A DNA stretch of 64,000 bases from an uncultured virus (IMG/VR IMGVR_UViG_3300023109_000016) (Duplodnaviria > Heunggongvirae > Uroviricota > Caudoviricetes), in the IMG/VR virus record IMGVR_UViG_3300023109_000016. One strand, written 5' to 3'. Position 1 is the first letter of the stretch, and every line of letters begins with the position of its first letter. Below, piece after piece: positions 8,167 to 52,292 of this stretch. The notes below the pieces were generated by a model. The model did no database searches. It saw only the letters and a program-made list of their open reading frames with translations, and was not told the origin of the DNA. A program made the translations under genes and the position numbers.

Positions 8167-8208
8167 ATAGTCAATTATTTTATATAGGTATACGGAAGAG
8201 TGTTTGGC

Positions 8209-10882: not shown

Positions 10883-11824
10883 ATGACTTTCCAAGATGAT
10901 GAATTAAATATGGAAATTATAGAAGTAAAGCAATGTAGTGATTGCAAATCAAGAGAATTTGAACACAATGCCAGAACAGGCGAAGATGTTTGTATGAATT
11001 GCGGTCTTGTTTATTCAAACATGGCTATTGATGAAGGACCTGATTGGAGAAGTTATGAAGATACTTCTCAAGAACAATCTGGTGAAAGAACAGGTATGCC
11101 AACTACCAATCTTTTGCACGATAAAGGATTGACAACAGATATCGGATGGAAGAATTCAGATTATTCAGGTTCAAACCTTTCATCTATGAACAACAAACTG
11201 TTTAGAAGGCTAAGAAGGCAACATCAAAGAACCAGAATTTCATCATCAACCGAGAGAAATCTTGCAGTAGCCTTAGGAGAGTTGCAAAGATTAGCGGCTC
11301 AAATGGCGTTGCCCAGAGATGTTAGAGAAGAAGCGGCTTATATTTACAGAAAAGCCGTTGAAAAGAAACTTGTAAGGGGAAGGTCTATTGAAGGCGTAGT
11401 AGCCGCTTCACTTTATGCGGCTTGCAGAATGAGGAAGATTCCAAGAACGCTTGATGAAGTAGGAGAATTTTCCAGAACGGGTAGGAAAGAAATCGGAAGA
11501 ACATTTAGAGCAATTGCAAAAGAGTTGAGGATTATGGTTCATCCTTCAAATCCAAAAGATTATATTGATAGATTTTGTTCAGTTTTAGAATTGCCAAGAG
11601 AAGTAATTACTCAAGCACACAATATTGTTGATAGAGCCGAGCAAATTGATTTGACGGCAGGAAGAGGTCCTACCGGTATTGCGGCGGCTTCAGTTTATCT
11701 CGCTTCTAAGATGAGGGGTTTTGAAAGAACTCAAAAAGAAGTTTCCGATGCGGCAGGAGTAACTGAAGTAACTATCAGAAACAGATACAAAGAAATGTGT
11801 AACGCATTAGACATTAACTTGTAA
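10883..11824 (+). CDS. tfb: Archaeal transcription initiation factor TFB (TFIIB)
   Basis: Zn ribbon CSDC..CMNCGLV, DEGPDWR B-reader, LHDKGLTT, two cyclin repeats (RGRSIEGVVAASLY; GRGPTGIAAASVY...VTEVTIRNRYKE). Confidence 0.97.
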   Translation: MTFQDDELNMEIIEVKQCSDCKSREFEHNARTGEDVCMNCGLVYSNMAIDEGPDWRSYEDTSQEQSGERTGMPTTNLLHDKGLTTDIGWKNSDYSGSNLSSMNNKLFRRLRRQHQRTRISSSTERNLAVALGELQRLAAQMALPRDVREEAAYIYRKAVEKKLVRGRSIEGVVAASLYAACRMRKIPRTLDEVGEFSRTGRKEIGRTFRAIAKELRIMVHPSNPKDYIDRFCSVLELPREVITQAHNIVDRAEQIDLTAGRGPTGIAAASVYLASKMRGFERTQKEVSDAAGVTEVTIRNRYKEMCNALDINL

Positions 11825-14897: not shown

Positions 14898-15551
14898 TTA
14901 TTTTTCATTTACGCTCCAAGGATACTCTTTCCAATTCATAAACCATTGATTCACAATAGGCGATATAACAACATTCAAATCATCTACCCCCATAAAACCC
15001 TGTCCATCATAATCAGTAAAAACATATGTCATTTGATTTTTGATGAATCCCGTTAAAATAACTTCCTCTTTGTCTGGCTCATAATCCCATTCTATTGAAT
15101 CCCAATCTTCATATTCCATTAAAGGATTCCCTTCATAAGTTTTTTTCCAGTTTTCAAATTGATATCTTAATGTCATCCCAATAAAAATCTCCCTTCCTTT
15201 TTTTATGGCTCTTTTAACAAACTTATCTTGCTCCCATCTGTGATAATATTTTTGAACTGCATGGGGCGTAAAACCAACATTGAAATAATGGTTGTATTGA
15301 TAATCTCTGGTATCTATGTTAAATGTTAATCTTACACCATAGATATCGCAATTTGAGTTCCCATATTCATTCTCGCTTTTTGTTTTTCCTTTATGAGTAA
15401 TTTGCAGTTTGAGTTTTGATATTGGAAAATACCAATTCTGTTCAAAGTGAAATTTTATTGAATCTAAAAAATAATCCTGTATATTAGGCATGGGGTGTTC
15501 ATTCAACCAATCCTCAATTTCACCCAAAACCGTTACATGATATTTAGTCAT
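14898..15551 (-). CDS. Hypothetical protein with C-terminal FMNW tag
   Basis: Ends WFMNWKEYPWSVNEK. Confidence 0.8.
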   Translation of the reverse strand: MTKYHVTVLGEIEDWLNEHPMPNIQDYFLDSIKFHFEQNWYFPISKLKLQITHKGKTKSENEYGNSNCDIYGVRLTFNIDTRDYQYNHYFNVGFTPHAVQKYYHRWEQDKFVKRAIKKGREIFIGMTLRYQFENWKKTYEGNPLMEYEDWDSIEWDYEPDKEEVILTGFIKNQMTYVFTDYDGQGFMGVDDLNVVISPIVNQWFMNWKEYPWSVNEK

Positions 15552-16030
15552 GATTTCACCTCAAACGGCGTTTCTGTCCAATTCATAAATGGCTGAGAGT
15601 CAATTGAAGTTATTGAATAAACATTAGCCCATGCTAAAATAGAATCTATCGTATCATAATAATTACCCGGACTATCAAATCTCAAATTTTGAAAATGCGT
15701 TCCAACTGCATCTTCATTATAATAAAATTCACAATAATATAAATTTAAACCATGCTCTTCTGACGCTAAACTTCCTTCAACATCTTCATCTAATTGCGAT
15801 TTATCGTTATTTATGAACGCCAAAAAATTTTCCTTTCTGTCTTTTTTAATAACAAATATCCATTTCTTTGAAAGATTTTTGAAATCAGATTTAATAAGAG
15901 GAGTGTTTTTCTTATATGTCATCAAAAAATCTTTGCCAAACCTTGCCCTATTAATCTGATTTACGGCTTCTGTAAACTTTCTCATATTTTCTGGATAATT
16001 GTTTGTCATTTCAGGAATGGGAAGTTTCAT
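15548..16030 (-). CDS. Hypothetical protein with C-terminal FMNW tag
   Basis: Ends PFMNWTETPFEVKS; TTTAAGTATC promoter. Confidence 0.8.
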   Translation of the reverse strand: MKLPIPEMTNNYPENMRKFTEAVNQINRARFGKDFLMTYKKNTPLIKSDFKNLSKKWIFVIKKDRKENFLAFINNDKSQLDEDVEGSLASEEHGLNLYYCEFYYNEDAVGTHFQNLRFDSPGNYYDTIDSILAWANVYSITSIDSQPFMNWTETPFEVKS

Positions 16031-16091: not shown

Positions 16092-16679
16092 ATGGTCAAT
16101 GTAGGTATTTGTGGTCAAATGGCAAGTGGTAAAACAACTCTTGCCGAAGCACTTTGTAATGAAATCCCGTCTTATTCTAAATTTTCATTTGCTAAATCAG
16201 TAAAGGATTTTGCTAATTTCTTGTTTGATATTCCAGAAGGATATAAAGACAGAGAAAAGTATCAAAAGGTTGGAGATGGCGGAAGAAGATTCATTGGAGG
16301 CAATGTGTGGATTGATGCAACTCTTAATGCAGTATATAACAAACCCGAATCAGGTTGGGGCATTATTGATGATGTAAGATATATTAACGAAGTCCAACAT
16401 CTTAAAAAGAAAGGCTGGTTCATGGTAAAAATTAATATTTCAGAAGACTTGCAGGAAAAAAGAATAAAAGAAACTTATCCTAATGATTGGGAAAAGCACC
16501 TTGCCGCAAGAACTCATGCAAGCGAGGTTGAAGTCGCAGAAGCATCAGAAAGTCTTTTTGACCTTGTAATTGATGCCGATGACGGAGCAGTTCCTATTGA
16601 GACTCTTATTCAAGGAATCAATGATAAAATGAAGCAAGGTCATCAACAACCTGAATTGTCTCAGCACTTTGGATATTAA
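16092..16679 (+). CDS. Deoxynucleoside monophosphate kinase (phage-type P-loop kinase)
   Basis: GQMASGKTT Walker A, SFA..VK, IIDDVRYINE, HASE. Confidence 0.85.
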   Translation: MVNVGICGQMASGKTTLAEALCNEIPSYSKFSFAKSVKDFANFLFDIPEGYKDREKYQKVGDGGRRFIGGNVWIDATLNAVYNKPESGWGIIDDVRYINEVQHLKKKGWFMVKINISEDLQEKRIKETYPNDWEKHLAARTHASEVEVAEASESLFDLVIDADDGAVPIETLIQGINDKMKQGHQQPELSQHFGY

Positions 16680-17439
16680 GTTTCCTCAGTTTAGTTAATC
16701 CGTAAAGAATTACACCTATTGCGGCGATTCCAGCAAAATTGCCCATTCTGATTCTGGTTTCTGAGTTAAATACTGCTGAACCAGACTTTGGACCCTCAAG
16801 GTCAATAATACCCATACAACCTAATTGACCCAAAGATTCTTGGAAAGCAAACCAATCAACACCTGCCTTGTTAGCCAAAGTCATGGAACCGTCTTGTTGC
16901 TTAACTTGCTGGTTTTGTCCTGTTTCAGGAGTAATTCTTGAAGGGTCAACCGAAGGATTAGACATTCTCATAGCCTTTACTAATGTTTCTCTGTTGGGGA
17001 AAACAAGAATCCTGCACCTATTATGGAATACTTCTTGACCCGTGTTCGTATCAATTTGCTTGTGAGGATACACCAAATACTGCACAACCATTTCATCGTT
17101 CTGGTATGATTTTACGAATTCTCTGCAAATATCTGTGCTACTAAAATATTGTCTGCCTGTGTAAATCTTGCCGTCTTTAAGAGGGTGTCCGTGAATAGTC
17201 CACTTTCTTTGAGATTCTGTATATCCATTCATCAATCTATCTTGGGCAGACTTTTTAGTAGGAGAAACTTCAATTCTGGATTCTCCTCCGTATGATACTT
17301 CTCCAAGTTCATAATCGCCGTTTACATCGTAAACATAACACATCCATTCCCTTTCATCATGAGTTTTATCGGAATGGGTTTTCATCCTTTGGATTGCCTT
17401 AGGAGTAAACTTAGACCATTCAGATTTCCAAAGCGACAT
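16618..17439 (-). CDS. JAB/MPN (JAMM)-like metalloprotease with C-terminal TM
   Basis: E (REWMC)...HGHP...SSTD pattern; TM FAGIAAIGVILYGL; TTTAAGTAG promoter. Confidence 0.6.
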   Translation of the reverse strand: MSLWKSEWSKFTPKAIQRMKTHSDKTHDEREWMCYVYDVNGDYELGEVSYGGESRIEVSPTKKSAQDRLMNGYTESQRKWTIHGHPLKDGKIYTGRQYFSSTDICREFVKSYQNDEMVVQYLVYPHKQIDTNTGQEVFHNRCRILVFPNRETLVKAMRMSNPSVDPSRITPETGQNQQVKQQDGSMTLANKAGVDWFAFQESLGQLGCMGIIDLEGPKSGSAVFNSETRIRMGNFAGIAAIGVILYGLTKLRKLNIQSAETIQVVDDLASFYH

Positions 17440-17480
17440 GATTTTAAGTTAGCGTCTTGCTACTTAAAAGGTTCGTTAAA

Positions 17481-17530
17481 TGGTGCAGGGGAGAGGCGGG
17501 GGGAGGGAGCCGAAGTTCCTCTCCACCTGC
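17481..17530 (-). ncRNA. Putative 50-nt hairpin RNA ending in ACCA (tRNA-minihelix-like)
   Basis: GCAGG-U-GGAGAGG/CCUCUCC-CCUGC 12-bp stem plus ACCA; own TTTAAGTA box 23 nt upstream; lies between divergent genes. Confidence 0.6.
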
Positions 17531-17591
17531 AGATATTTGTTATATTTATTACTACTTAAAACTTTATATATCAAAAAAATAATAAAGAATT

Positions 17592-18155
17592 ATGGATGCG
17601 GCTGATTCCTTTATGAATTGGGGATTTAAACCCCAAAAATCAGTTGATGAATTATATTATAGTATTTATAAGCATTGGACTGATGATGCAGATGTATATC
17701 AATCTCCAGCCGTCTTTAAACCGTTTGATAAAGTCCCTTTACAATTCTTAGAAAACCAAATTACGGATATGATTGGAAAAATTTTGCAAAATTTTGAAGT
17801 TTATTTTGATGATATTGGTTACTGCGAAGTATTAGTTTCAGGAGACAGACCATTTCCAATTGAAGTATATTATAGAAATCAAACCATTCCAACACCTCTT
17901 ATTTCGGTAGATTTTGACCCAGATATTCCAAACGATATTTATAATTCTCTCTACGAAGAGTATCCCAAAAAATTTGCAAAAGAGATTATGAAATTTATTA
18001 CAGAGGATAATCTTCAAAAATGGCTAAAAGCCAATGATGAGTTGAGCAAAGGAAAGCCTTGGTATACAAATACAATTACTATCTTAAGATTAAATGATTC
18101 AATTGGAGATGATTATTTCGCCTCGTCTCTTACTGTGTTTAGCAAAAAGTTCTAA
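17592..18155 (+). CDS. Hypothetical protein with N-terminal FMNW tag
   Basis: Begins MDAADSFMNWGFKPQ. Confidence 0.8.
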   Translation: MDAADSFMNWGFKPQKSVDELYYSIYKHWTDDADVYQSPAVFKPFDKVPLQFLENQITDMIGKILQNFEVYFDDIGYCEVLVSGDRPFPIEVYYRNQTIPTPLISVDFDPDIPNDIYNSLYEEYPKKFAKEIMKFITEDNLQKWLKANDELSKGKPWYTNTITILRLNDSIGDDYFASSLTVFSKKF

Positions 18156-18836: not shown

Positions 18837-19538
18837 CTAATTCTTTTGGAAAGGATTAGAATCCCAATTGAGGAATTTAGTTTTATTTAAGTTTAAGAAA
18901 TCAGACAATTTGATAATTTTATATTGATAGCCCTGTTCCAAGAATTTTTTATCTAAAAAAACAGATTCTGAGGGTTTTGAAGGGATTTTTTCTAAATGAT
19001 ACCTGAAAACATAAGAAAATCCTCTTATAACCATTTTTTCATTAGGAGGTTCTCCATCTAAACAAGAAAACCCTAATGACCTACTACTATTACTTATTCT
19101 AAACCTAAATCTCGGCTCCAATTCGTTTCTCCAATTAGTTAAACCCTTATAAGTAATAGAGAAATCAAGATATTCCTTACTTGGATTTCTTATTGTAATC
19201 GCTTCATATCTCAAAAGCAAACCTTCCCTATCATCACAAGTAGTTGAAGGAGCAGTCAAAATTCCATTTAAACTTACTTCTCCAGAAGGAGATATCTTAT
19301 ATGAAATGTAAGGGATGCCAGCATCCTTTCTGTTCAATTGAGTCATAAAAGTTATAAAATCAACGCCCATATAAGACATTCTCTCAATGTCGTTAGTAAT
19401 TATTTTTGTATTTAAAGAATAATAATCTAAAAAAGGAGGTTTATCACTTTGCAAATCAATTGAAAATTTCTCTTTACCGTATTTTTCAATCAGTTTTATA
19501 ATCAACCCTTCTTTTTCAGGTATTCTAATTTTACTCAT
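18837..19538 (-). CDS. Hypothetical protein with C-terminal FLNW tag
   Basis: Ends KFLNWDSNPFQKN. Confidence 0.8.
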   Translation of the reverse strand: MSKIRIPEKEGLIIKLIEKYGKEKFSIDLQSDKPPFLDYYSLNTKIITNDIERMSYMGVDFITFMTQLNRKDAGIPYISYKISPSGEVSLNGILTAPSTTCDDREGLLLRYEAITIRNPSKEYLDFSITYKGLTNWRNELEPRFRFRISNSSRSLGFSCLDGEPPNEKMVIRGFSYVFRYHLEKIPSKPSESVFLDKKFLEQGYQYKIIKLSDFLNLNKTKFLNWDSNPFQKN

Positions 19539-20110
19539 TTTTCACCCTCCAAGGGATTAGAATCCCAATTCATAAATATTGAATCCGAATTTCCAATCAA
19601 ATACGATACATCAAGGGCGGTAAGCCCTCCCTTAGATTGTGTCCATATCTTACCTACGAAAACCTCGTCTAAGAAGGATTTTTTTTGGTTTTCCTTATAT
19701 TCTTCTGTAACTACAGGATACTTGCCTTTCAAATTAGGCTTATTAGAGAAATTTATTCCACTTTCGCCTATGAGCATATCGCCCATATCATCAGCAACCA
19801 AGTAACAATACTGAAAATTGTCAAAATCTATTTTAGAAGATTGAAGCAAACCAATCAATGTATAAAGTCTATGAGGAGCGGGATAAACATTTTGATAAAT
19901 CAAATAAGTTTTACCAATTAATCTCGGTTTTAAAAATATTTCATAAAAAGGAACCGATTTAGATTCCAACTTCTTAATTTCTTCTTTCAATCCATTCTTG
20001 TATATGTCAATCCACCACTTGTCAGAAACAGCCGTGAATAATCCTCTATAAGGAGTTCCCCATTTTTCTCCCAAAGCCTTCAATTGTTTTTGGAAATCCT
20101 CCATATTCAT
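19535..20110 (-). CDS. Hypothetical protein with C-terminal FMNW tag
   Basis: Ends IFMNWDSNPLEGEK. Confidence 0.8.
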   Translation of the reverse strand: MNMEDFQKQLKALGEKWGTPYRGLFTAVSDKWWIDIYKNGLKEEIKKLESKSVPFYEIFLKPRLIGKTYLIYQNVYPAPHRLYTLIGLLQSSKIDFDNFQYCYLVADDMGDMLIGESGINFSNKPNLKGKYPVVTEEYKENQKKSFLDEVFVGKIWTQSKGGLTALDVSYLIGNSDSIFMNWDSNPLEGEK

Positions 20111-20239
20111 TTTTCACCCTCCTGCACCTTTAACATGATAAAGCCCTCTTACCTCCAGATACTCCTCATTCCGATACTTAAAACCTCTCTCTCAATCGTG
20201 CAGGTCATTTTTATATAGGTATCATAATGATGGGTGAGC

Positions 20240-21922
20240 ATGGAGCCTATTGCTAAAGAGTTGTATGAGTATGTTAAATCATGCTCAAACAGTTTTGAAG
20301 TAATCTCTACTTCGTTAGAAGAAGTGTATAATCAAATGCTTTTCGCAGATGAAGTGGAAGGTTCTGGATTCTGTATCAAGATTAATACCAAAGGCATTGT
20401 TAATGAAAAAGCAGGTGGCGGAAGGCTAATAATTGATTTCACAGTTTCCGATGGAGAGTATTCTATTCCTTGTGTAGTTCATAATGCTGAAGAAGTGTAT
20501 TTAGAAGGGGCTATGGAAAAAGAAGAGATGACGAACTTTCTTAAGATTTTAACAAAAAGCCAAAAACAAGGTAAAAGAGTTGAGTTGAAGGGAAAGTTTA
20601 TTAATTATGGAAAGAAAAGAGTTTGGCTTTGTTCAAAAGTAAGGATTGATGAGGGTTTGAAAGAATCTCAATTAAACGATGGGCAATTTATTATGTTTAA
20701 ATCATTATGCAAAAAGCATAATACTACGCCTATGGAATTAATGATGAGAGATGATACTCTTTGGGCTGAATTGTTTGCTAAAGATTTTTTGAAAAAAGCA
20801 GTATTGCTTTATTGCCTGAATCCTCTACAAAAACAAGATATGATTCACATAGGCATCGTTTCTTCACATGGAGAAGGTAAAGACCACTTGGTTGAGAATG
20901 TAATTCAAAAGTTAGTTCCTTGCAGAATGGCAGGTTCTGGAAAAATGGCTACCATTCCGGGATTGTTTGGTGCAATGTCTGGAGATGATTTGAATGCTAT
21001 TGAAATTGGATTGCTTCCTAAGATGAATCATGAAAGAGTAGCCGTTTCTGAATTTCAAACATGGAATGATGATACATTTGGTGAATTAATGAATATGATG
21101 GCAAATGGGAAAATTGAAATGCAGAAAGGAGCATTAGATGTTCAAAGGCAAACGGTTCTTAATTTGATGTTTATGGGTAATCCTCCGCATTATTATGATG
21201 AAGATAAACACGATAAAAAAGTCATGCTTGATGCTTTTGGTCAATACACCTTCCAAATTATTTCAAGATTGACGCTTATTTTCACACAACTTTCTTTAAG
21301 CGGAGATTCTGCAGTTCAAGAAATTAGAAATGCGATTATTTCTTCAATGGATGGAGACTTCAAAAAAGAATCTGTGAAAGAAAGCCTTGAGGTATGGAGA
21401 GCGTTCTTTAGAGAATATTTAAGGTATGTTTCAAAAATGAAACCTTTGCTTAGAGATTATATTCCCAGAATCAATAGCACTTATGATGAAATTGAAGCAA
21501 GACCTCAATTTCAAAATGCTTTCTGCATTAGAACGGCTACAGATAATAGGAAATATCAAGAATTCGCTAATCTGGTAAGGGCTTTTGCAAGACTACAAGG
21601 AGATGAAAGAATTACTTGGCATCATCTTTGTGAGGCAAGAGATATTTTTGAATTAAGCCTTCAAACTCTTACAGAAGAATTCCCACTTACGGCTATGATT
21701 GAAGGAATCACGCCTGAAATTATTGAGATTTACAAGCAATTAGTTGCAAAGTGTCCAATGGCTGATAACATTAAAGAATTAAAATCTCATGTTAAAATGA
21801 CAAATAATCAATTAGATATTTTGATTAGAAGCGGTGCAATTACGAAATTTAATGATGGCCCTATGATTGTAAATGAAGATTGGATTGGAAAAGTTGAAGG
21901 AGGTGAGCAATTTGTCCAATGA
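20240..21922 (+). CDS. mcm: Divergent MCM-family replicative helicase
   Basis: IHIGIVSSHGEGKD (Walker A), AVSEFQ (Walker B), MANGKIEMQKG (PS1), MGNP, ISRL (Arg finger), RKYQEFANLVRAFARL (sensor 2); ORF 20234..21922. Confidence 0.75.
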   Translation: MEPIAKELYEYVKSCSNSFEVISTSLEEVYNQMLFADEVEGSGFCIKINTKGIVNEKAGGGRLIIDFTVSDGEYSIPCVVHNAEEVYLEGAMEKEEMTNFLKILTKSQKQGKRVELKGKFINYGKKRVWLCSKVRIDEGLKESQLNDGQFIMFKSLCKKHNTTPMELMMRDDTLWAELFAKDFLKKAVLLYCLNPLQKQDMIHIGIVSSHGEGKDHLVENVIQKLVPCRMAGSGKMATIPGLFGAMSGDDLNAIEIGLLPKMNHERVAVSEFQTWNDDTFGELMNMMANGKIEMQKGALDVQRQTVLNLMFMGNPPHYYDEDKHDKKVMLDAFGQYTFQIISRLTLIFTQLSLSGDSAVQEIRNAIISSMDGDFKKESVKESLEVWRAFFREYLRYVSKMKPLLRDYIPRINSTYDEIEARPQFQNAFCIRTATDNRKYQEFANLVRAFARLQGDERITWHHLCEARDIFELSLQTLTEEFPLTAMIEGITPEIIEIYKQLVAKCPMADNIKELKSHVKMTNNQLDILIRSGAITKFNDGPMIVNEDWIGKVEGGEQFVQ

Positions 21923-27203: not shown

Positions 27204-30200
27204 ATGCAGTATTCAGATTACGCTAAAATTCTTCAAGATAAATGTGATGAAGAATACGCTTTTGCGAATTTAGCAAGAAAGCAAGGACACGACCCAAAGG
27301 ATTTTGTTGAAATCCCTCAAGCACACGACCTTGCAGACAGAACTCAAAAACTGCTTAACTTCTTGCACCCAAGAGATACGGCTTCTCAAATCAGAGAACT
27401 CACTAAATTACACGATGGAAACAGAGAATTAGTTGCTTTGGAAATCGGAAAGATTGTTTCTGCAGAGTCTTATTTATTCGGGGCTCTTGAAAAGTGTCCT
27501 GCTTGCAAAGGCCAAGGATACACCAAATCAGGTTGGAGAGAAAAAGAGTGTCTTTCGTGCAAAGGTGCAGGTTTTGACATGGCTTATACCAACATACCGA
27601 ATTGGAAAGAAACGCTTGAAAAATTTGAAACGGTTGAAAAATTTGAAAATGACGATAAAATTGCTCTTTCAATCTATCACGGGGTTTGTGCAGGATTGGC
27701 GGTTTTGACCGAGGGAATCTTGGTAGCCCCTCTTGAAGGAGTAGCCTCTGCAAGGATTATTTCTAATCAAGACGGAACAAAATGCATCTCTATTTCATAT
27801 GCAGGTCCTGTAAGGTCTGCAGGAGGAACAGGTCAAGCACTTTCTGTGCTTATTGCAGACATTGTAAGAAGAAATTTCAAGTTATCTAAATCAATTGTCA
27901 CCTCCAACGAAATAGAAAGATATAAAGAAGAAGTATCTGCTTATGCAAGAGGTCTTCAATTCAGACCTTCTAACCCTCAATTGGAAATTATTGCTAAGAA
28001 TTGTCCTGTTTATATTGACGGAGAAGGAGTTGGTAATGAAGTATCTGGACAAAGAGATTTGCCAAGAGTTCCTACTAACAAGGTTAGGGAAGGTGCGGTT
28101 CTGGTGATGTGCGAAGGATTGGTTCTTAAAGCACCGAAAATTCTAAAATATGTTTCACAATTAGGGCTTGATGGTTGGGATTGGCTTAAAGAGTTCGTTT
28201 CTAATAAGAAATCGGATTCTAAAAACGAAATCAAACCTTCCGACAAATTTATTAGTGATGTTCTCGCTGGAAGGCCTATTTTTGGAATGCCTATGCAAGA
28301 AGGAGGATTTAGGTTAAGATATGGTAGAGGAAGGTTGTCTGGATTGGCGACTACCTCTGTGCATCCTGCAACCATGAAGGCTCTTTCAGGCTTTATTATT
28401 ATTGGAACTCAAATGAAATATGAAAGACCGGGCAAAGGAACAGTAGTAACACCTTGTTCTACTATTGAAGGTCCTTATGTGCAATTCAAAGATGGTTCTG
28501 CAAAAAGAATCGTAGATTCCGAAGAATTACCAGATGGAATGCCTATTGATGTTGACTGGCCTATTGCTAAGGTATGGGATTTAGGAGAGTTGTTGGTTCC
28601 TGTAGGAGAATTCCTTGAAAATAACCATGCAATCATGCCCTCACCCTATGTTAAAGAGTGGCATGAGCAATTAGTTCCTGAGTATCCTCAATCTTTTATA
28701 GAGGCAGTTCAGCATTGTAAAGATTTAGGGGTGGCTATGGCTCCAGAATATGTTGCGAATCTTACAGATGTTTCAGCAAGGGATTTTTATGACTTTTGCA
28801 AAACACTCACGATATCGGTGTGTGGGGATAAAGTGGAAATTCATCCAATGCATCTTGAAACGGCATATAAGTTAAATGTTGATGTTGAAAAGATTAAAGG
28901 AGATTATTTCATGGTTGGAGATTCTGCTTCTGTTGTGATTCATAATTTGAAAAACATTTTGAAAATGATTAGAATCAATATGGACACTTATCCTTCTGCA
29001 TTGGAATTTTTAAATGCAGTTGCAGATTATGAAATTAAACCTAAAGTAACTTATAGGATTGGTGCAAGAATGGGTAAGCCTGAAGGGGCTAAATTAAGAG
29101 AAATGAAGCCAGCAATCCATACTCTATTCCCGCTTGGTCATGATGTAGGTAATCAAAGGAAAATTACCGATGCTATTAAAAAAGAAACGAAATCTGAAAT
29201 GGGGATTAGACATTGTAAGGTTTGTGATGCCCAAACTCATTTAGGCGTTCATTGTGGTGAAAATACTAAATTTATTGAAACCGAGTTTAAAAAGCACGAT
29301 ATTAATCAATTATGGAAAGATGCAAAGGCAAAGGTTGGCATTTATAACGATTATCCTGTAAAGGGAACCAAGGGGATGACTTCGGCTGAAAAGTGTCCAG
29401 AAAATCTTGTGAAAGGAATTATAAGATATGAAAACGATATCTCGGTGTTTAGAGACGGGACAATTAGGTTTGATATGGTAGACATCACCATGACGCATTT
29501 CAAGCCCTCTGAGATAGGTTTATCTGCTCAAAAAGCCCAAGAATTAGGTTATGCTGTGGATTCTCCAGACCAAGTAGTAGAATTATACCCTCAAGATATT
29601 GTAGTTTCTAAGAATTGTGCAGAAATTATGTTAAAAGCAACACATTATATTGACCAAATGCTTGTGAAGTTATATGACTTGGAACCTTTTTACCAATGCG
29701 AAACGGTTGAAGATTTGTTTGGTGTTATGTGCATGGGTCTTGCACCTCACACATCAGGAGCCATTCTTTGTAGGTTGATTGGAGTAGCAGATATTAAAGG
29801 CCATTACGGTCATCCGTTTTTCCACGCAGGAAAAAGAAGAAATTGTGATGGCGATATTGATTGCATTCTTCTTTTGCTTGACGGATTGATGAATTTTAGC
29901 AAATCCTTCTTGTCCACGACCAGAGGTGGTCAAATGGATGCTCCTTTGATTTTAACTACGAAGTTGAATCCAAGTGAAATTGATAAAGAAGCCCTTAATG
30001 TAGATATTAATTGGAGATATCCTGTAGAGTTTTATGAGTTGAGTCAATCAACACCAAATCCTAAGGAAGTTTTCAATGCAGGAATTAAGACTGTAGAAAC
30101 GGTGTTAGGGACTCCTGAAGAGATTAGAGGCTTCGGATATACACACGGAACAAAAGATTGCTCAGAAGGTCCTAAAAACAACCCTTATAACACATTAGAT

Positions 30201-30644
30201 TCCATGAGGCAGAAAACAATGGTTCAGTTTGCTCTTGGAAACACGCTTCATTCAGTAGATAATATGGAACAATCAAGCAAATTGATTGATAGGCACTTGA
30301 TTAGAGACATGAGAGGAAATTTGAGGGCTTTTGGACAACAAAAGGTAAGATGCACGAAATGTGGAGAATCATATAGAAGACCTCCTATCAATGGGAAATG
30401 CAGAACCGTTGTTGATAAAAAGGTTGACCCGTTTTCAGGAGAAGAAATTGAAGTAAATTGTCCGGGAAATATCATTTTGACGGTATCTCAAGGGTCTATT
30501 AAAAAGTATGATGGCTTAATGGGAGAATTGGTTGAAAAATGGGGTTGCGACCAATATACTGCTCAACTTTATGAATGGGTTTCTATGTGGGTTAAACAAA
30601 CCTTTAGAACTGAAAACGAAAGAGAACAAAAAACTCTTTGGTGA
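27204..30644 (+). CDS. polC: DNA polymerase D large (catalytic) subunit DP2
   Basis: 1146 aa; LTEGILVAPLEG, YAGPVRSAGGT, GGFRLRYGR, IGARMGKPE, FRDGTIRFD, GLAPHTS, KRRNCDGD, RGGQMDAPL, D.RGNLRAF..Q..RC..C; class-E promoter at 27174. Confidence 0.98.
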   Translation: MQYSDYAKILQDKCDEEYAFANLARKQGHDPKDFVEIPQAHDLADRTQKLLNFLHPRDTASQIRELTKLHDGNRELVALEIGKIVSAESYLFGALEKCPACKGQGYTKSGWREKECLSCKGAGFDMAYTNIPNWKETLEKFETVEKFENDDKIALSIYHGVCAGLAVLTEGILVAPLEGVASARIISNQDGTKCISISYAGPVRSAGGTGQALSVLIADIVRRNFKLSKSIVTSNEIERYKEEVSAYARGLQFRPSNPQLEIIAKNCPVYIDGEGVGNEVSGQRDLPRVPTNKVREGAVLVMCEGLVLKAPKILKYVSQLGLDGWDWLKEFVSNKKSDSKNEIKPSDKFISDVLAGRPIFGMPMQEGGFRLRYGRGRLSGLATTSVHPATMKALSGFIIIGTQMKYERPGKGTVVTPCSTIEGPYVQFKDGSAKRIVDSEELPDGMPIDVDWPIAKVWDLGELLVPVGEFLENNHAIMPSPYVKEWHEQLVPEYPQSFIEAVQHCKDLGVAMAPEYVANLTDVSARDFYDFCKTLTISVCGDKVEIHPMHLETAYKLNVDVEKIKGDYFMVGDSASVVIHNLKNILKMIRINMDTYPSALEFLNAVADYEIKPKVTYRIGARMGKPEGAKLREMKPAIHTLFPLGHDVGNQRKITDAIKKETKSEMGIRHCKVCDAQTHLGVHCGENTKFIETEFKKHDINQLWKDAKAKVGIYNDYPVKGTKGMTSAEKCPENLVKGIIRYENDISVFRDGTIRFDMVDITMTHFKPSEIGLSAQKAQELGYAVDSPDQVVELYPQDIVVSKNCAEIMLKATHYIDQMLVKLYDLEPFYQCETVEDLFGVMCMGLAPHTSGAILCRLIGVADIKGHYGHPFFHAGKRRNCDGDIDCILLLLDGLMNFSKSFLSTTRGGQMDAPLILTTKLNPSEIDKEALNVDINWRYPVEFYELSQSTPNPKEVFNAGIKTVETVLGTPEEIRGFGYTHGTKDCSEGPKNNPYNTLDSMRQKTMVQFALGNTLHSVDNMEQSSKLIDRHLIRDMRGNLRAFGQQKVRCTKCGESYRRPPINGKCRTVVDKKVDPFSGEEIEVNCPGNIILTVSQGSIKKYDGLMGELVEKWGCDQYTAQLYEWVSMWVKQTFRTENEREQKTLW

Positions 30645-30700: not shown

Positions 30701-31183
30701 TCATGATTTCATCTCCCAAGGACTTAATTTCCAATTTAAAAATTCTGTTTCATATGGATTTATAAATTGATTAAATAATTTTTCATCAAATAATATGTAT
30801 TTTAGAGGCCATTCATTATCAATAAAATCTTCAATTTCCTCAAATTTATCTTCCTCTAAATATAATTGGTTTATATGTGGTTTTACTATGATTTCATTTG
30901 AAAGTGTAATAAAAGATACACTTATTTCATTACCTTCGCATTTAGACCAATTACTAAAAAAAACATAGTCATAGTCTTTATAATCATCTGTTAAGGAAAA
31001 ATCTATATAAATATTTTTTTCTTTATTTCTATTTTCTAAGATATCGCTAAGATATTCATTAGGCTCTTTTTTTTTAATTTCTTGAATATATAGTAAAAGG
31101 TTGTTTGTATTTATTCTATTTTTATTTGCATAATCTTCCTGAATAAGTTCTCTTAATTTATTTATAAGTTCTTGCAAATTCAT
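30701..31183 (-). CDS. Hypothetical protein with C-terminal FLNW tag
   Basis: Ends EFLNWKLSPWEMKS; GAGGTGA SD. Confidence 0.8.
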   Translation of the reverse strand: MNLQELINKLRELIQEDYANKNRINTNNLLLYIQEIKKKEPNEYLSDILENRNKEKNIYIDFSLTDDYKDYDYVFFSNWSKCEGNEISVSFITLSNEIIVKPHINQLYLEEDKFEEIEDFIDNEWPLKYILFDEKLFNQFINPYETEFLNWKLSPWEMKS

Positions 31184-38427: not shown

Positions 38428-38913
38428 TTATTCCTTAATCATCTGTTCAGTTATTTTTTGAATTACTATCTCAGTAATATAAGGTCCGTCTTCATAATCC
38501 CATTTATTGTAAAGGGAAAATCTTTCCTTTTCCCAATTAATTCTGATTCCTACATAAACCCAGAAATCAAATTCAGAACCTCCTACATCAATTTGTAATC
38601 CTTTTGGAAATTCTCTTCTTACATCATTCCAATCTTTACAAGCCTGTAAAGTTCTAATATATCCTAAATTTACTTCATATTCAGCATCATCTGGTTCTGG
38701 GTCCGCATCTCTAATATCGTTTATATGGCCTATTGAATCTCTCAAATAAGGTCTAATACAAGTTATATAACTCCACAGACCTTTTTTAAAATAAGGCCCT
38801 TGAGTATCTACAGAGGAATATTCTATATTCGTCCTTATTCTAAAATAAACATTTTCTAAATTTAAAGAAGGTTTGTTTTCGTGCCAATTCATAAATGCTG
38901 GTTTTTTTGTCAT
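38428..38913 (-). CDS. Hypothetical protein with N-terminal FMNW tag
   Basis: Begins MTKKPAFMNWHENKP. Confidence 0.8.
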   Translation of the reverse strand: MTKKPAFMNWHENKPSLNLENVYFRIRTNIEYSSVDTQGPYFKKGLWSYITCIRPYLRDSIGHINDIRDADPEPDDAEYEVNLGYIRTLQACKDWNDVRREFPKGLQIDVGGSEFDFWVYVGIRINWEKERFSLYNKWDYEDGPYITEIVIQKITEQMIKE

Positions 38914-38972: not shown

Positions 38973-39551
38973 TTATGCAACCTCCTTATAAATAGATTCT
39001 GTAGGGTAAATAAATAGGCCTTCTCCTCTCACGCCTTCGTTTGAATCTCCAAATATTAGTTTAAATATTTCATTTTCAATATCTATTTTAATATTAAAAT
39101 TTGAGTAAAGTTCCCATTCCCAAAAATTAAAATTTATTTGTGTTTTATAATTTTTTGAAAAATCATCAAAAGAGTTCAAATTAGGCAATAATTCTAATAA
39201 CTCTTGATAGTTATCTACGGTTTCTTGCCTATCTGCATATCCTGCGTGTTCAATCCATTCTTCATTTCCTCCAATATCTTCCATACAAAGTTCAATATGT
39301 CCCATTATTTGTATTAATAATGTCTTAAATCCATCAAATACTGCTTGAGACAAATTCGGAATGATAAATATTCCATCCGAGTCTTTTTTAGAACCTGTTA
39401 AATAAATGAATTTTCTTGAATCTTTGTTATAAATTCTGGAAGTAAACCCAATATCTGCATGGTCTTGAATATAGTGATTAACAAGATACTCAGAAGTATT
39501 AGGCTTGATGTTTTGATGCCAATTTATAAATGCAGGAGGATTATCCATCAA
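38973..39551 (-). CDS. Hypothetical protein with N-terminal FINW tag
   Basis: Begins (M)MDNPPAFINWHQNIKP. Confidence 0.8.
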   Translation of the reverse strand: MMDNPPAFINWHQNIKPNTSEYLVNHYIQDHADIGFTSRIYNKDSRKFIYLTGSKKDSDGIFIIPNLSQAVFDGFKTLLIQIMGHIELCMEDIGGNEEWIEHAGYADRQETVDNYQELLELLPNLNSFDDFSKNYKTQINFNFWEWELYSNFNIKIDIENEIFKLIFGDSNEGVRGEGLFIYPTESIYKEVA

Positions 39552-39832: not shown

Positions 39833-40339
39833 TTAAAGATTAAGTCTGGAAATAACTACGGTCAATGCCCCATCTTGCAAATTCCAAGACTCAAATGATT
39901 CGGAAATAGAAAAATGAATAAAATTCTTTGTAGTTATAAAGTGTGCTTGAAAATAATCCTCTGCCCTCTCCTCGTTATAACCCATTTCTCCATTTATATA
40001 CTTCTCTTCCTCAACCCATTTAGATAAATTTTTAAATACTTCTTCTATCTTTGTATAAACTTCTTGAACCTCTTGATTCTCTAAAATTTCTAAATGCGTT
40101 TGAACAGTTCTTAACAATTTATCATAATTATAATAATAATAACTTGAAATCATTCCATCTTTTCTTTCGTAGTTAGGATTTCCAAAAGAATTTAATAATT
40201 CTTCCTTCGTTAAAACATTTATTGTAGTGTTTATCTCGGAAGGAAATACCTCCGTTTCCAAATAAGAGACTGTGTATAAAAACAATTCTTCATCTTGAGG
40301 TTCAAAGCCCCAATTCATGAATGAAGGAGTTTCTTTCAA
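39833..40339 (-). CDS. Hypothetical protein with N-terminal FMNW tag
   Basis: Begins MKETPSFMNWGFEPQ (compare 17592 SFMNWGFKPQ). Confidence 0.8.
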   Translation of the reverse strand: MKETPSFMNWGFEPQDEELFLYTVSYLETEVFPSEINTTINVLTKEELLNSFGNPNYERKDGMISSYYYYNYDKLLRTVQTHLEILENQEVQEVYTKIEEVFKNLSKWVEEEKYINGEMGYNEERAEDYFQAHFITTKNFIHFSISESFESWNLQDGALTVVISRLNL

Positions 40340-51442: not shown

Positions 51443-51518
51443 ATTTTGTTCACCTCAATATTTTATCGTAGTCCCTTAGGACTTATTATATAGTTTGTAT
51501 TTATTACTACTTAAACCT

Positions 51519-52292
51519 TTAGGTTTTATTAAAAGGAGAAGAATTCCAATTCATAAATGGTTTTGAAATCTTTCTTGGTTGCCAAATTGTTGAGAACCAT
51601 TGATAAGGAGTTAAATCAGATAGGAGTTTTTTGGAAAGGCTATCGTTATCATAAATTTCTTCCACCCATTTTTTATACCTTACGAATTGCCACTTAATCC
51701 AAGACCACTCCTCATAATCATCATAAGGAACAGGATATCCAAAATATCCTAACAATAATATATCCTGCATTCTTAAATTTACATGAGGATTTTCTCTCCC
51801 ATCCCACTTCCTATCATATTTTTCTTCCCAAACTTGAACACAGATGTTATTCATTTTGATTTTTATTTCTGTAATCATTTCAAGTTCTTCATCATCACCA
51901 GAAAAATATGCCATGCCATCATAAAGCATACTGTTAAAAGCCTTAAGGAAAAAAACATCATACAAATGAATTTCCTTTAAAGATATTGAATAATCAGAAA
52001 TTCTATCTCTCCCATCCTCCTCTAACTTCATTGGAAGATTATTGTAAAGATATTTATCAAACCATTCCTTCTTTATTTCTAAGGGGATTTTGAGTTTGGC
52101 ATAATTTCCCAATTCTACATCATCTTCAATTTCTTTAACAGAATAAGAATCGTATATTGGTTTTACAAAAGGAGGAAGTGTAAAATTTAGGTTTTGATAA
52201 TTATTGAAATAATAGTAAATAACTTCATCACTCATTTCTTCCCTTACTTTTAAGAAAATATCTTTCCAAGCAGGGTGAATCCAAAAAGCCAT
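51519..52292 (-). CDS. Hypothetical protein with C-terminal FMNW tag
   Basis: Ends PFMNWNSSPFNKT; TTTAAATAGTCG promoter. Confidence 0.8.
   Translation of the reverse strand: MAFWIHPAWKDIFLKVREEMSDEVIYYYFNNYQNLNFTLPPFVKPIYDSYSVKEIEDDVELGNYAKLKIPLEIKKEWFDKYLYNNLPMKLEEDGRDRISDYSISLKEIHLYDVFFLKAFNSMLYDGMAYFSGDDEELEMITEIKIKMNNICVQVWEEKYDRKWDGRENPHVNLRMQDILLLGYFGYPVPYDDYEEWSWIKWQFVRYKKWVEEIYDNDSLSKKLLSDLTPYQWFSTIWQPRKISKPFMNWNSSPFNKT

Follow-up and report, generated by a model that had tools for sequence, protein, structure and literature searches.

Several kinds of hairpin are known to stand at the beginning of transcripts. HIV TAR, lambda boxB/nut and HK022 put are nascent-RNA control hairpins, which lie at or near +1 and act as RNA while the polymerase proceeds. 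Stem-loops of the E. coli ompA type are 5′-terminal stabilisers of messages. In translation initiation, the core of the anti-Shine-Dalgarno (anti-SD) sequence is CCUCC. To our knowledge, very few structured non-coding RNAs have come from archaeal viruses, and none from the uncultured marine lineage studied here. Among the closest described systems are RNAs with C-rich loops: the S. aureus Rsa RNAs (PMC2790875) and the actinobacterial 6C RNA (PMC6486639) are reported to use such loops to act on ribosome sites in bacteria, and M. mazei sRNA41 masks ribosome-binding sites in archaea (PMC5867862).

The viral hairpin described below resembles these RNAs in carrying unpaired UCCC or CCUCC in a hairpin loop, complementary to G-rich ribosome sites, and in having its own promoter. 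It differs from them in being both viral and archaeal, in consisting of one hairpin only, in having no Rfam homology and in standing at the 5′ end of transcripts that can continue beyond it into a gene or a tRNA. We found no description of the element in open-access papers and preprints. The hairpin defines a structured RNA family not described before, of a kind for which promoter-proximal viral hairpins and RNAs with C-rich loops are precedents. Its comparative support is unusually clean: there are 35 versions with compensatory changes, and the distance to the promoter is fixed.

A hairpin between two divergent genes

The window is a stretch of 64,000 nucleotides of DNA from an uncultured virus (IMG/VR record IMGVR_UViG_3300023109_000016). 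The genes that flank the hairpin diverge, 16618..17439 being read from the minus strand and 17592..18155 from the plus strand. The features of the region are the following.

17592..18155, plus strand: divergent neighbour gene.
17563..17570, plus strand: TTTATATA box, 29 nt upstream of the ATG at 17592, attributed to the divergent gene from its spacing only.
17553..17560, minus strand: P1, TATA-type box TTTAAGTA, which would drive the hairpin transcript, as judged from its spacing to G17530.
17518..17530, minus strand: 5′ arm of the hairpin, GCAGGUGGAGAGG; transcription is predicted to begin at G17530, and U17525 forms a bulge.
17497..17517, minus strand: C/U-rich 21-nt loop, AACUUCGGCUCCCUCCCCCCG, with UCCC and CCUCCC.
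17485..17496, minus strand: 3′ arm of the hairpin, CCUCUCCCCUGC, defined by fold and covariation.
17481..17484, minus strand: unpaired tail ACCA, of which the A and the first C are kept in relatives and CCA as such is not.
17461..17468, minus strand: P2, another copy of the TTTAAGTA box, starting 29 nt ahead of the leaderless ATG at 17439.
16618..17439, minus strand: downstream MPN/JAB-like gene (273 aa), used as the marker for collecting relatives.
16551..17519, strand not shown: 969-nt RNA-library contig that takes in the loop and 3′ arm of the hairpin, P2 and the entire downstream gene.

The minus strand from 17530 to 17481 reads GCAGG-U-GGAGAGG, a 21-nt loop, CCUCUCC-CCUGC and ACCA, exactly as given in the preliminary description of this locus. 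RNAfold returned the structure drawn there, namely 5 bp, a bulged U and 7 bp (a 12-bp stem), the 21-nt loop and a free ACCA. The fold has an energy of –23.7 kcal/mol (z = –3.7), and none of 200 shuffled sequences was as stable. Since the flanking genes diverge, the hairpin is not a terminator of either neighbour, as had been argued before. An intrinsic terminator would follow a gene read from the same strand, which is not the case here, and a T-run after the hairpin is not conserved: its length ranges from none to T7, and among about 37 distinct 14-nt tails about one third had T4 or longer.

We searched the 64-kb window with a covariance model of the promoter and hairpin, with filters off. The hairpin was found once, with 59.5 bits, and the next match (24.8 bits) corresponded to the promoter alone. 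A single copy was also found in a relative of 123 kb. Thus, the unit is not repeated before many genes in either of these two sequences. The exact 21-mer of the hairpin had no match in viral contigs. Rfam gave no family at gathering score, with only sub-threshold hairpin matches at E ≤ 10.

The stem covaries in related viruses

Using the marker protein, we collected 85 loci, consisting of 80 of 516 metagenome relatives and 5 loci from viral contigs. The set contains duplicates: L001 and L083 come from a single contig, and the sequence of L002 matches the window exactly. Three loci had no usable upstream sequence and were left aside; a simple fold scan of the other 82 showed a strong hairpin in 59. 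The covariance model (promoter plus hairpin, hits counted at E ≤ 0.001) gave 61 matches in the 85 marine viral and metagenome loci, that is 51 distinct rows and 35 distinct hairpins. Promoter and hairpin were aligned together because a MAFFT alignment of the hairpin alone put the 5′ ends out of register.

The covariation that the preliminary description had proposed to look for in homologous contigs was indeed observed. In an alignment of 26 sequences, 95.8% of the cells pair, as compared to 75.7% after shuffling (none of 500 shuffles reached the observed value). When the partner was slid, only 49–63% paired. Both sides change in 8 of the 10 pairs. With all 61 matches (51 distinct rows), the values were 94.7% against 77.1%, and both sides change in 9 of 10 pairs, this larger alignment being fitted to the model. 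The G1-C pair is invariant in 51/51 distinct rows. G-U and U-G wobbles account for 67 of 508 cells (13%), and the complementary strand would pair in only about 81%. Therefore, the pairing belongs to the minus strand, as RNA or at least as a single strand.

The six closest relatives share an unchanged 46-nt hairpin and an unchanged P2 region; variation is found between P1 and G1 and in two to four bases past the A that follows the stem. An identical 46-nt hairpin between varying flanks points to purifying selection. Moreover, relatives carry promoter and hairpin as a unit at the corresponding place and the hairpin covaries, which makes it more than a chance structure. A structured minus-strand RNA with its own promoter, as initially proposed, is therefore supported both by the covariation and by the fixed distance between box and G1 (55 of 59 loci, see below).

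The element is not universal. About 20 related loci keep the marker gene without the hairpin, and one clade is without the whole stretch between the two promoter boxes. The hairpin is also absent from three of the five viral-contig loci (L082, L084 and L085), which are the most distant ones. Its loss from about 20 loci that keep the gene shows that the element is dispensable. The covariance model gave no match in 151 Thermoplasmata-class genomes, including one 1.9-Mb genome, a result that shows little as the scan had no cellular positive control. BLAST of the hairpin together with tRNA-Ala matched 26 of these 151 genomes, through the tRNA part only. Finally, six host tRNA-Ala hits had no short rRNA-end motif within 1.5 kb.

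Promoter boxes and predicted transcription start

The first base of P1 is 30 nt upstream of G17530, and 22 nt separate the end of the box from this base. We compared this spacing with that of the genes of the window. Upstream of the 80 ORFs examined, 24 TTTAA[AG]TA boxes were present within 60 nt, and the distance from the start of the box to the start codon was 30 nt in 12 cases and 29 nt in 5. As the preliminary description had noticed, the hairpin box is thus spaced like the boxes of leaderless ATGs (17/24 at 29–30 nt, P1 at 30). This places G17530 where the leaderless messages of this virus begin, and the sequence therefore predicts a transcription start at G17530. In the fold scan, TTTAA lies 30–31 nt before G1 in 55 of the 59 hairpin-bearing loci; of the four exceptions, three are register slips of the script and one is cut by a contig end.

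The TTTAAGTA box occurs 17 times in the window against 5.0 expected. One further site (51478-51517, minus strand, 24.8 bits) carries a promoter (TTTAAGTAGTAATAAATA) that matches P1 almost fully along some 25 nt but has no hairpin, which indicates that P1 is a standard strong promoter of the virus. A P2-type box also precedes the marker gene in the relatives that were read. On the plus strand, the TTTATATA box probably serves 17592..18155. Three promoter boxes are thereby contained within 152 nt (17440-17591), TTTATATA standing back to back with P1 and P2 following. Another promoter-like motif, TTATATAGGTA, was seen upstream of the plus-strand starts at 8200, 11843, 20234 and 27204. As to translation signals, internal genes of the virus are preceded by GGAGG and GAGGUGA ribosome sites, and first genes have leaderless starts. 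No ribosome site lies in the P1 leader ahead of the ATG.

Conserved features of stem, loop and tail

Across the 35 versions of the hairpin, stems range from 8 to 16 bp with a median of 12 bp, exactly 12 bp being found in 8 versions, and the positions of bulges differ. The two arms are asymmetric in all 35 versions: among 417 pairs, 247 are G-C and 15 C-G, the 5′ arm being G-rich and the loop and 3′ arm C-rich. Loops are 14–29 nt long and consist of 48% C and 31% U. UCCC is present in 32/32 distinct loops (shuffled mean 17.3, maximum 24) and CCUCCC in 21/32 (shuffled mean 4.0, maximum 9); these loops come from related sequences and the counts are not independent. Past the stem, 46 distinct variants could be compared. 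An A is found in 45, AC in 43, ACC in 33 and ACCA in 6. The four-base tails are ACCT (22 variants), ACTC (7), ACCA (6), ACCC (5) and ACTT (3), with three others found once each. In the six closest relatives, the tail is ACCA, ACCT or ATCT beside the invariant hairpin, and the CCA positions are the only downstream sites that vary. Overall, the conserved core consists of G1, a G-rich 5′ arm, a C/U-rich loop with UCCC and an unpaired A-C-Y. The ACCA end, on the other hand, is by this comparison a coincidence of the window copy, which spares effort on aminoacylation assays.

Three other pairings were considered, of which the first two were rejected. An alternative pairing between the 5′ arm and the loop has a mean energy of –13.3 kcal/mol, but shuffled loops give –11.2 kcal/mol, which points to an effect of composition. 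As to long-range pairing between the 3′ end and the JAB-like ORF, 8-mers that match the 3′ end of the hairpin fall on the same codons in L002, L005 and L074. Over all loci, synonymous changes in these codons do not track the hairpin, and the match is attributed to chance. The complementarity of the 3′ end to the leader of 19535..20110, which had been mentioned as possibly fortuitous, may indeed be so, GGTGCAGG occurring 10 more times in the window.

RNA-library contigs and downstream genes

Four RNA-library runs were read as contigs, which show neither strand nor true ends, may include DNA carry-over and do not capture small RNAs. Besides the 969-nt contig, a second library gave a 151-nt record (17369-17519) that bridges the loop and 3′ arm, P2 and the gene. 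It is a fair reading that molecules longer than 50 nt and including the hairpin exist. Positions 17539-17940 are not covered by the RNA-library contigs. Both bridging records stop at 17519, which is 11 nt into the hairpin and hints only weakly, at most, at a 5′ end close to 17530. The record of a third run ends at 17436, adjoining the leaderless ATG, and two further records stop at 17386, beside a variant site. The preliminary description had presented a free RNA of 50 nt transcribed from its own promoter. The promoter is conserved. The contigs run from the hairpin into the downstream gene, and this description had itself named a longer mRNA of that kind as a ground for refuting a free RNA; a T-run terminator is not kept either. 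A free small RNA is therefore only a possibility.

At most loci, P2 and the JAB-like gene come next after the hairpin. In nine loci (L001, L048, L083, L067, L070, L076, L077, L079 and L080, of which L001, L048 and L083 hold the same sequence), a tRNA-Ala(UGC) starts 13–15 nt past the stem. This leaves no room for a promoter between hairpin and tRNA-Ala, which must therefore be co-transcribed with the hairpin. Two small genes stand between the hairpin and the JAB-like gene in L027 and L028. In another clade, tRNA-Ala is found about 1.4 kb away, on the other strand and without the hairpin. As these arrangements show, the module is independent of what lies downstream, and its tRNA cargo is unstable.

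Two loci were particular with respect to their tRNA content. L068 has a remnant (about 2430-2470) consisting of the first third of tRNA-Ala only. L070 has tRNA-Ala plus tRNA-Arg(GCG) at 2266-2459; sister loci have none.

Possible roles of the hairpin

The module belongs to a lineage of large uncultured marine archaeal tailed viruses. Our tentative interpretation, favoured here as the best explanation rather than as an established one, is that the hairpin is a single-copy non-coding RNA module of the 5′ end in which the C-rich loop is the working part. P1 would set the transcription start at G17530, and the RNA would open directly with the G-rich arm. The stem would supply a stable and defined 5′ end, with a presumed protective role, and would expose the 14–29-nt C/U-rich loop, always with UCCC and mostly with CCUCCC, ahead of the unpaired A-C-Y in which the hairpin would end. 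This loop may pair with G-rich Shine-Dalgarno-like sequences or may be read by a factor that recognises CCUCC-type sequences. P1 transcripts would not all end past the hairpin, some running on into the MPN/JAB-like gene, tRNA-Ala or the two small genes. Such a mode is likened to that of the bacterial C-rich-loop regulators and of M. mazei sRNA41.

A duplex scan of the window with the loop gave no specific target, the best non-self partners being G-rich coding repeats. An 8-nt perfect complement of the loop is present in the ribosome site of the TFB gene; it ranks only about 17th, with –21.1 kcal/mol. A loop made only of C and U would have much complementarity by composition, which counts against specific pairing. 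Moreover, general blocking of SD sequences would also hit the internal genes of the virus itself, which speaks against a masking role. A related and rather doubtful proposal is that the hairpin stands in for the 3′ end of the small-subunit rRNA, as an anti-SD decoy for SD-bearing messages or for host factors that read the anti-SD. Its anti-SD-like features are the CCUCC core in the loop and, often, a single-stranded C-A-C-C-U(-C) past the stem. If true, such a decoy would tilt translation towards the leaderless first cistrons of the virus.

The RNA contigs are equally compatible with a hairpin that is a leader and nothing else. A purely cis-acting 5′ leader would cap P1 transcripts (the JAB-like mRNA and the pre-tRNA-Ala) against decay from the 5′ end or tune their use, its loop having no partner. 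We regard this possibility as somewhat unlikely. The records that bridge hairpin and gene, the tRNA-Ala within 13–15 nt of the stem without a promoter of its own and the lack of a conserved terminator are all in its favour. The position at the 5′ end of the transcript also recalls the ompA-type stabilisers, from which the viral hairpin differs by its conserved loop motif and by a downstream gene that keeps its own leaderless promoter. However, a leader of this sort leaves the invariant UCCC, the conserved unpaired A-C and the strict asymmetry of the arms unexplained. The downstream genes retain P2, and the P1 leader lacks a ribosome site before the ATG. Each genome has a single copy, when many genes could benefit from such protection, and the leader of a tRNA is removed anyway. 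An unlikely further explanation gives the loop a protein partner: the hairpin would be bound on the nascent RNA and control P1 read-through across P2, or would act as a decoy titrating a host RNA-binding factor. A hairpin at +1, often bulged and with a conserved loop motif, would suit such a function, as would T-runs of varying strength past the hairpin with P2 directly downstream and the occurrence of both read-through and P2-type contig ends. Similarly to TAR, nut and put, the hairpin would act as RNA close to +1, here in an archaeal system where termination needs no hairpin. Against binding by a protein, no candidate RNA-binding protein was recognised in the window, neither bulge position nor stem length is conserved, and antitermination through a single copy would serve one monocistronic gene only.

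The preliminary description had favoured a mimic of the tRNA acceptor/T-arm minihelix with an encoded CCA, serving as decoy, donor or primer. Such a mimic would be recognised by CCA-adding enzyme, RNase Z or a synthetase. We now consider this reading very improbable, though the RNA may still be a substrate of the CCA-adding enzyme. The likeness to viral tRNA-like structures is real in some respects: a stem of median length 12 bp is followed by an unpaired purine and often CC (ACC in 33/46 variants), the transcript would start at the first paired base as judged from the box spacing, real tRNA-Ala genes adjoin the hairpin in nine loci, and the hairpin tails vary like the 3′ ends of the viral tRNA-Ala (ACCA, ACC|T, AC|TT, A|TTA). 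Of the stem, discriminator A and CCA described earlier, the stem covaries and the unpaired A is kept in 45/46 variants; the CCA is not kept. ACCA occurs in only 6/46 variants as compared to 12 of 15 loci for the viral tRNA-Ala genes, and the CCA positions are variable sites next to an invariant hairpin. Neither does the 12-bp acceptor-T-type stem survive the comparison, with stems of 8–16 bp (12 bp in 8/35) and shifting bulges. The large C/U-rich loops contain no 7-nt T-loop, and tRNA identity elements are absent; there is no G3:U70, the third pair being A-U or G-C. As the preliminary description expected, no canonical tRNA match was obtained: neither ARAGORN nor Rfam gave anything tRNA-like, even at E ≤ 10. 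Nor was a CCA-adding or tRNA-repair enzyme among the proteins recognised in the window. A function at the level of DNA, such as a cruciform, an origin, a protein-binding palindrome or a G-quadruplex on the complementary strand, has the least in its favour and we hold it to be highly improbable. It would fit a GC-rich inverted repeat in AT-rich DNA, located between divergent promoters in a region of replication genes. The 13% of G-U cells would however be A-C mismatches on the other strand, the arms differ freely between lineages, which leaves no fixed protein site, and the distance to the TATA box is fixed. The G-quadruplex variant was rejected, as a canonical motif is present in only 7 of the 35 versions and not in that of the window.

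Whatever its role, the hairpin offers a well-delimited case in which the use of RNA by archaeal viruses can be tested, be it in 5′-end protection, in the control of ribosome sites or in the titration of host factors.

Viral lineage and other observations in the window

The window encodes a TFB (10883-11824, plus strand), a family D DNA polymerase large subunit (27204-30644, plus strand), an MCM-like helicase (20234-21922, plus strand), UvdE, a PD-(D/E)XK nuclease and a primase-polymerase-like protein. A tail-fibre-like protein is also encoded, and most of the remaining ORFs of the window were assigned to no family. This gene content fits a large tailed virus of archaea. Our literature search found no paper naming a family D polymerase in marine archaeal viruses. 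The published magroviruses have genomes of 90–100 kb and a family B polymerase (PMC10768690). The IMG/VR records behind L082 and L084 are 160–166 kb long, have inverted terminal repeats and are rated 61–65% complete.

The 273-aa protein encoded downstream of the hairpin has 308 homologues in marine metagenomes (E ≤ 0.001) and no match in the GenBank phage set. Neither Pfam nor the sequences of the PDB gave a match. An AlphaFold2 model was obtained with a pLDDT of 76.7, and its top Foldseek matches were MPN/JAB proteins (Npl4, Rpn11, AMSH and BRCC36; E 3e-4 to 4e-3, TM 0.23–0.34). The JAB label given in the preliminary description is thus plausible at the level of the predicted fold, with modest scores; it receives no support from Pfam or from PDB sequences. 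The protein of the divergent neighbour gene, 17592..18155, has no relative in viral contigs.

At 30701-31183 on the minus strand, Pfam gave a weak match, below its threshold, to the AID/APOBEC-like deaminase clade NAD1 (E 7.7e-4, 20.1 bits for a cut-off of 27). We also noted a motif, TTYATNAAYTGG, that corresponds to the peptide F-[MI]-N-W and occurs 11 times in the window against 0.53 expected. Ten copies are on the minus strand (718-729, 1275-1286, 2658-2669, 14931-14942, 15578-15589, 19565-19576, 38884-38895, 39519-39530, 40310-40321 and 51546-51557). The plus-strand copy (17610-17621) lies at the N-terminus of the divergent neighbour. Where the context was read, the motif stands at the C-terminal end of small ORFs, directly before the GAGGTGA ribosome site of the next gene. 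Small ORFs in relatives end with it too (L027), and a docking peptide or a repeat at gene junctions are possible explanations.
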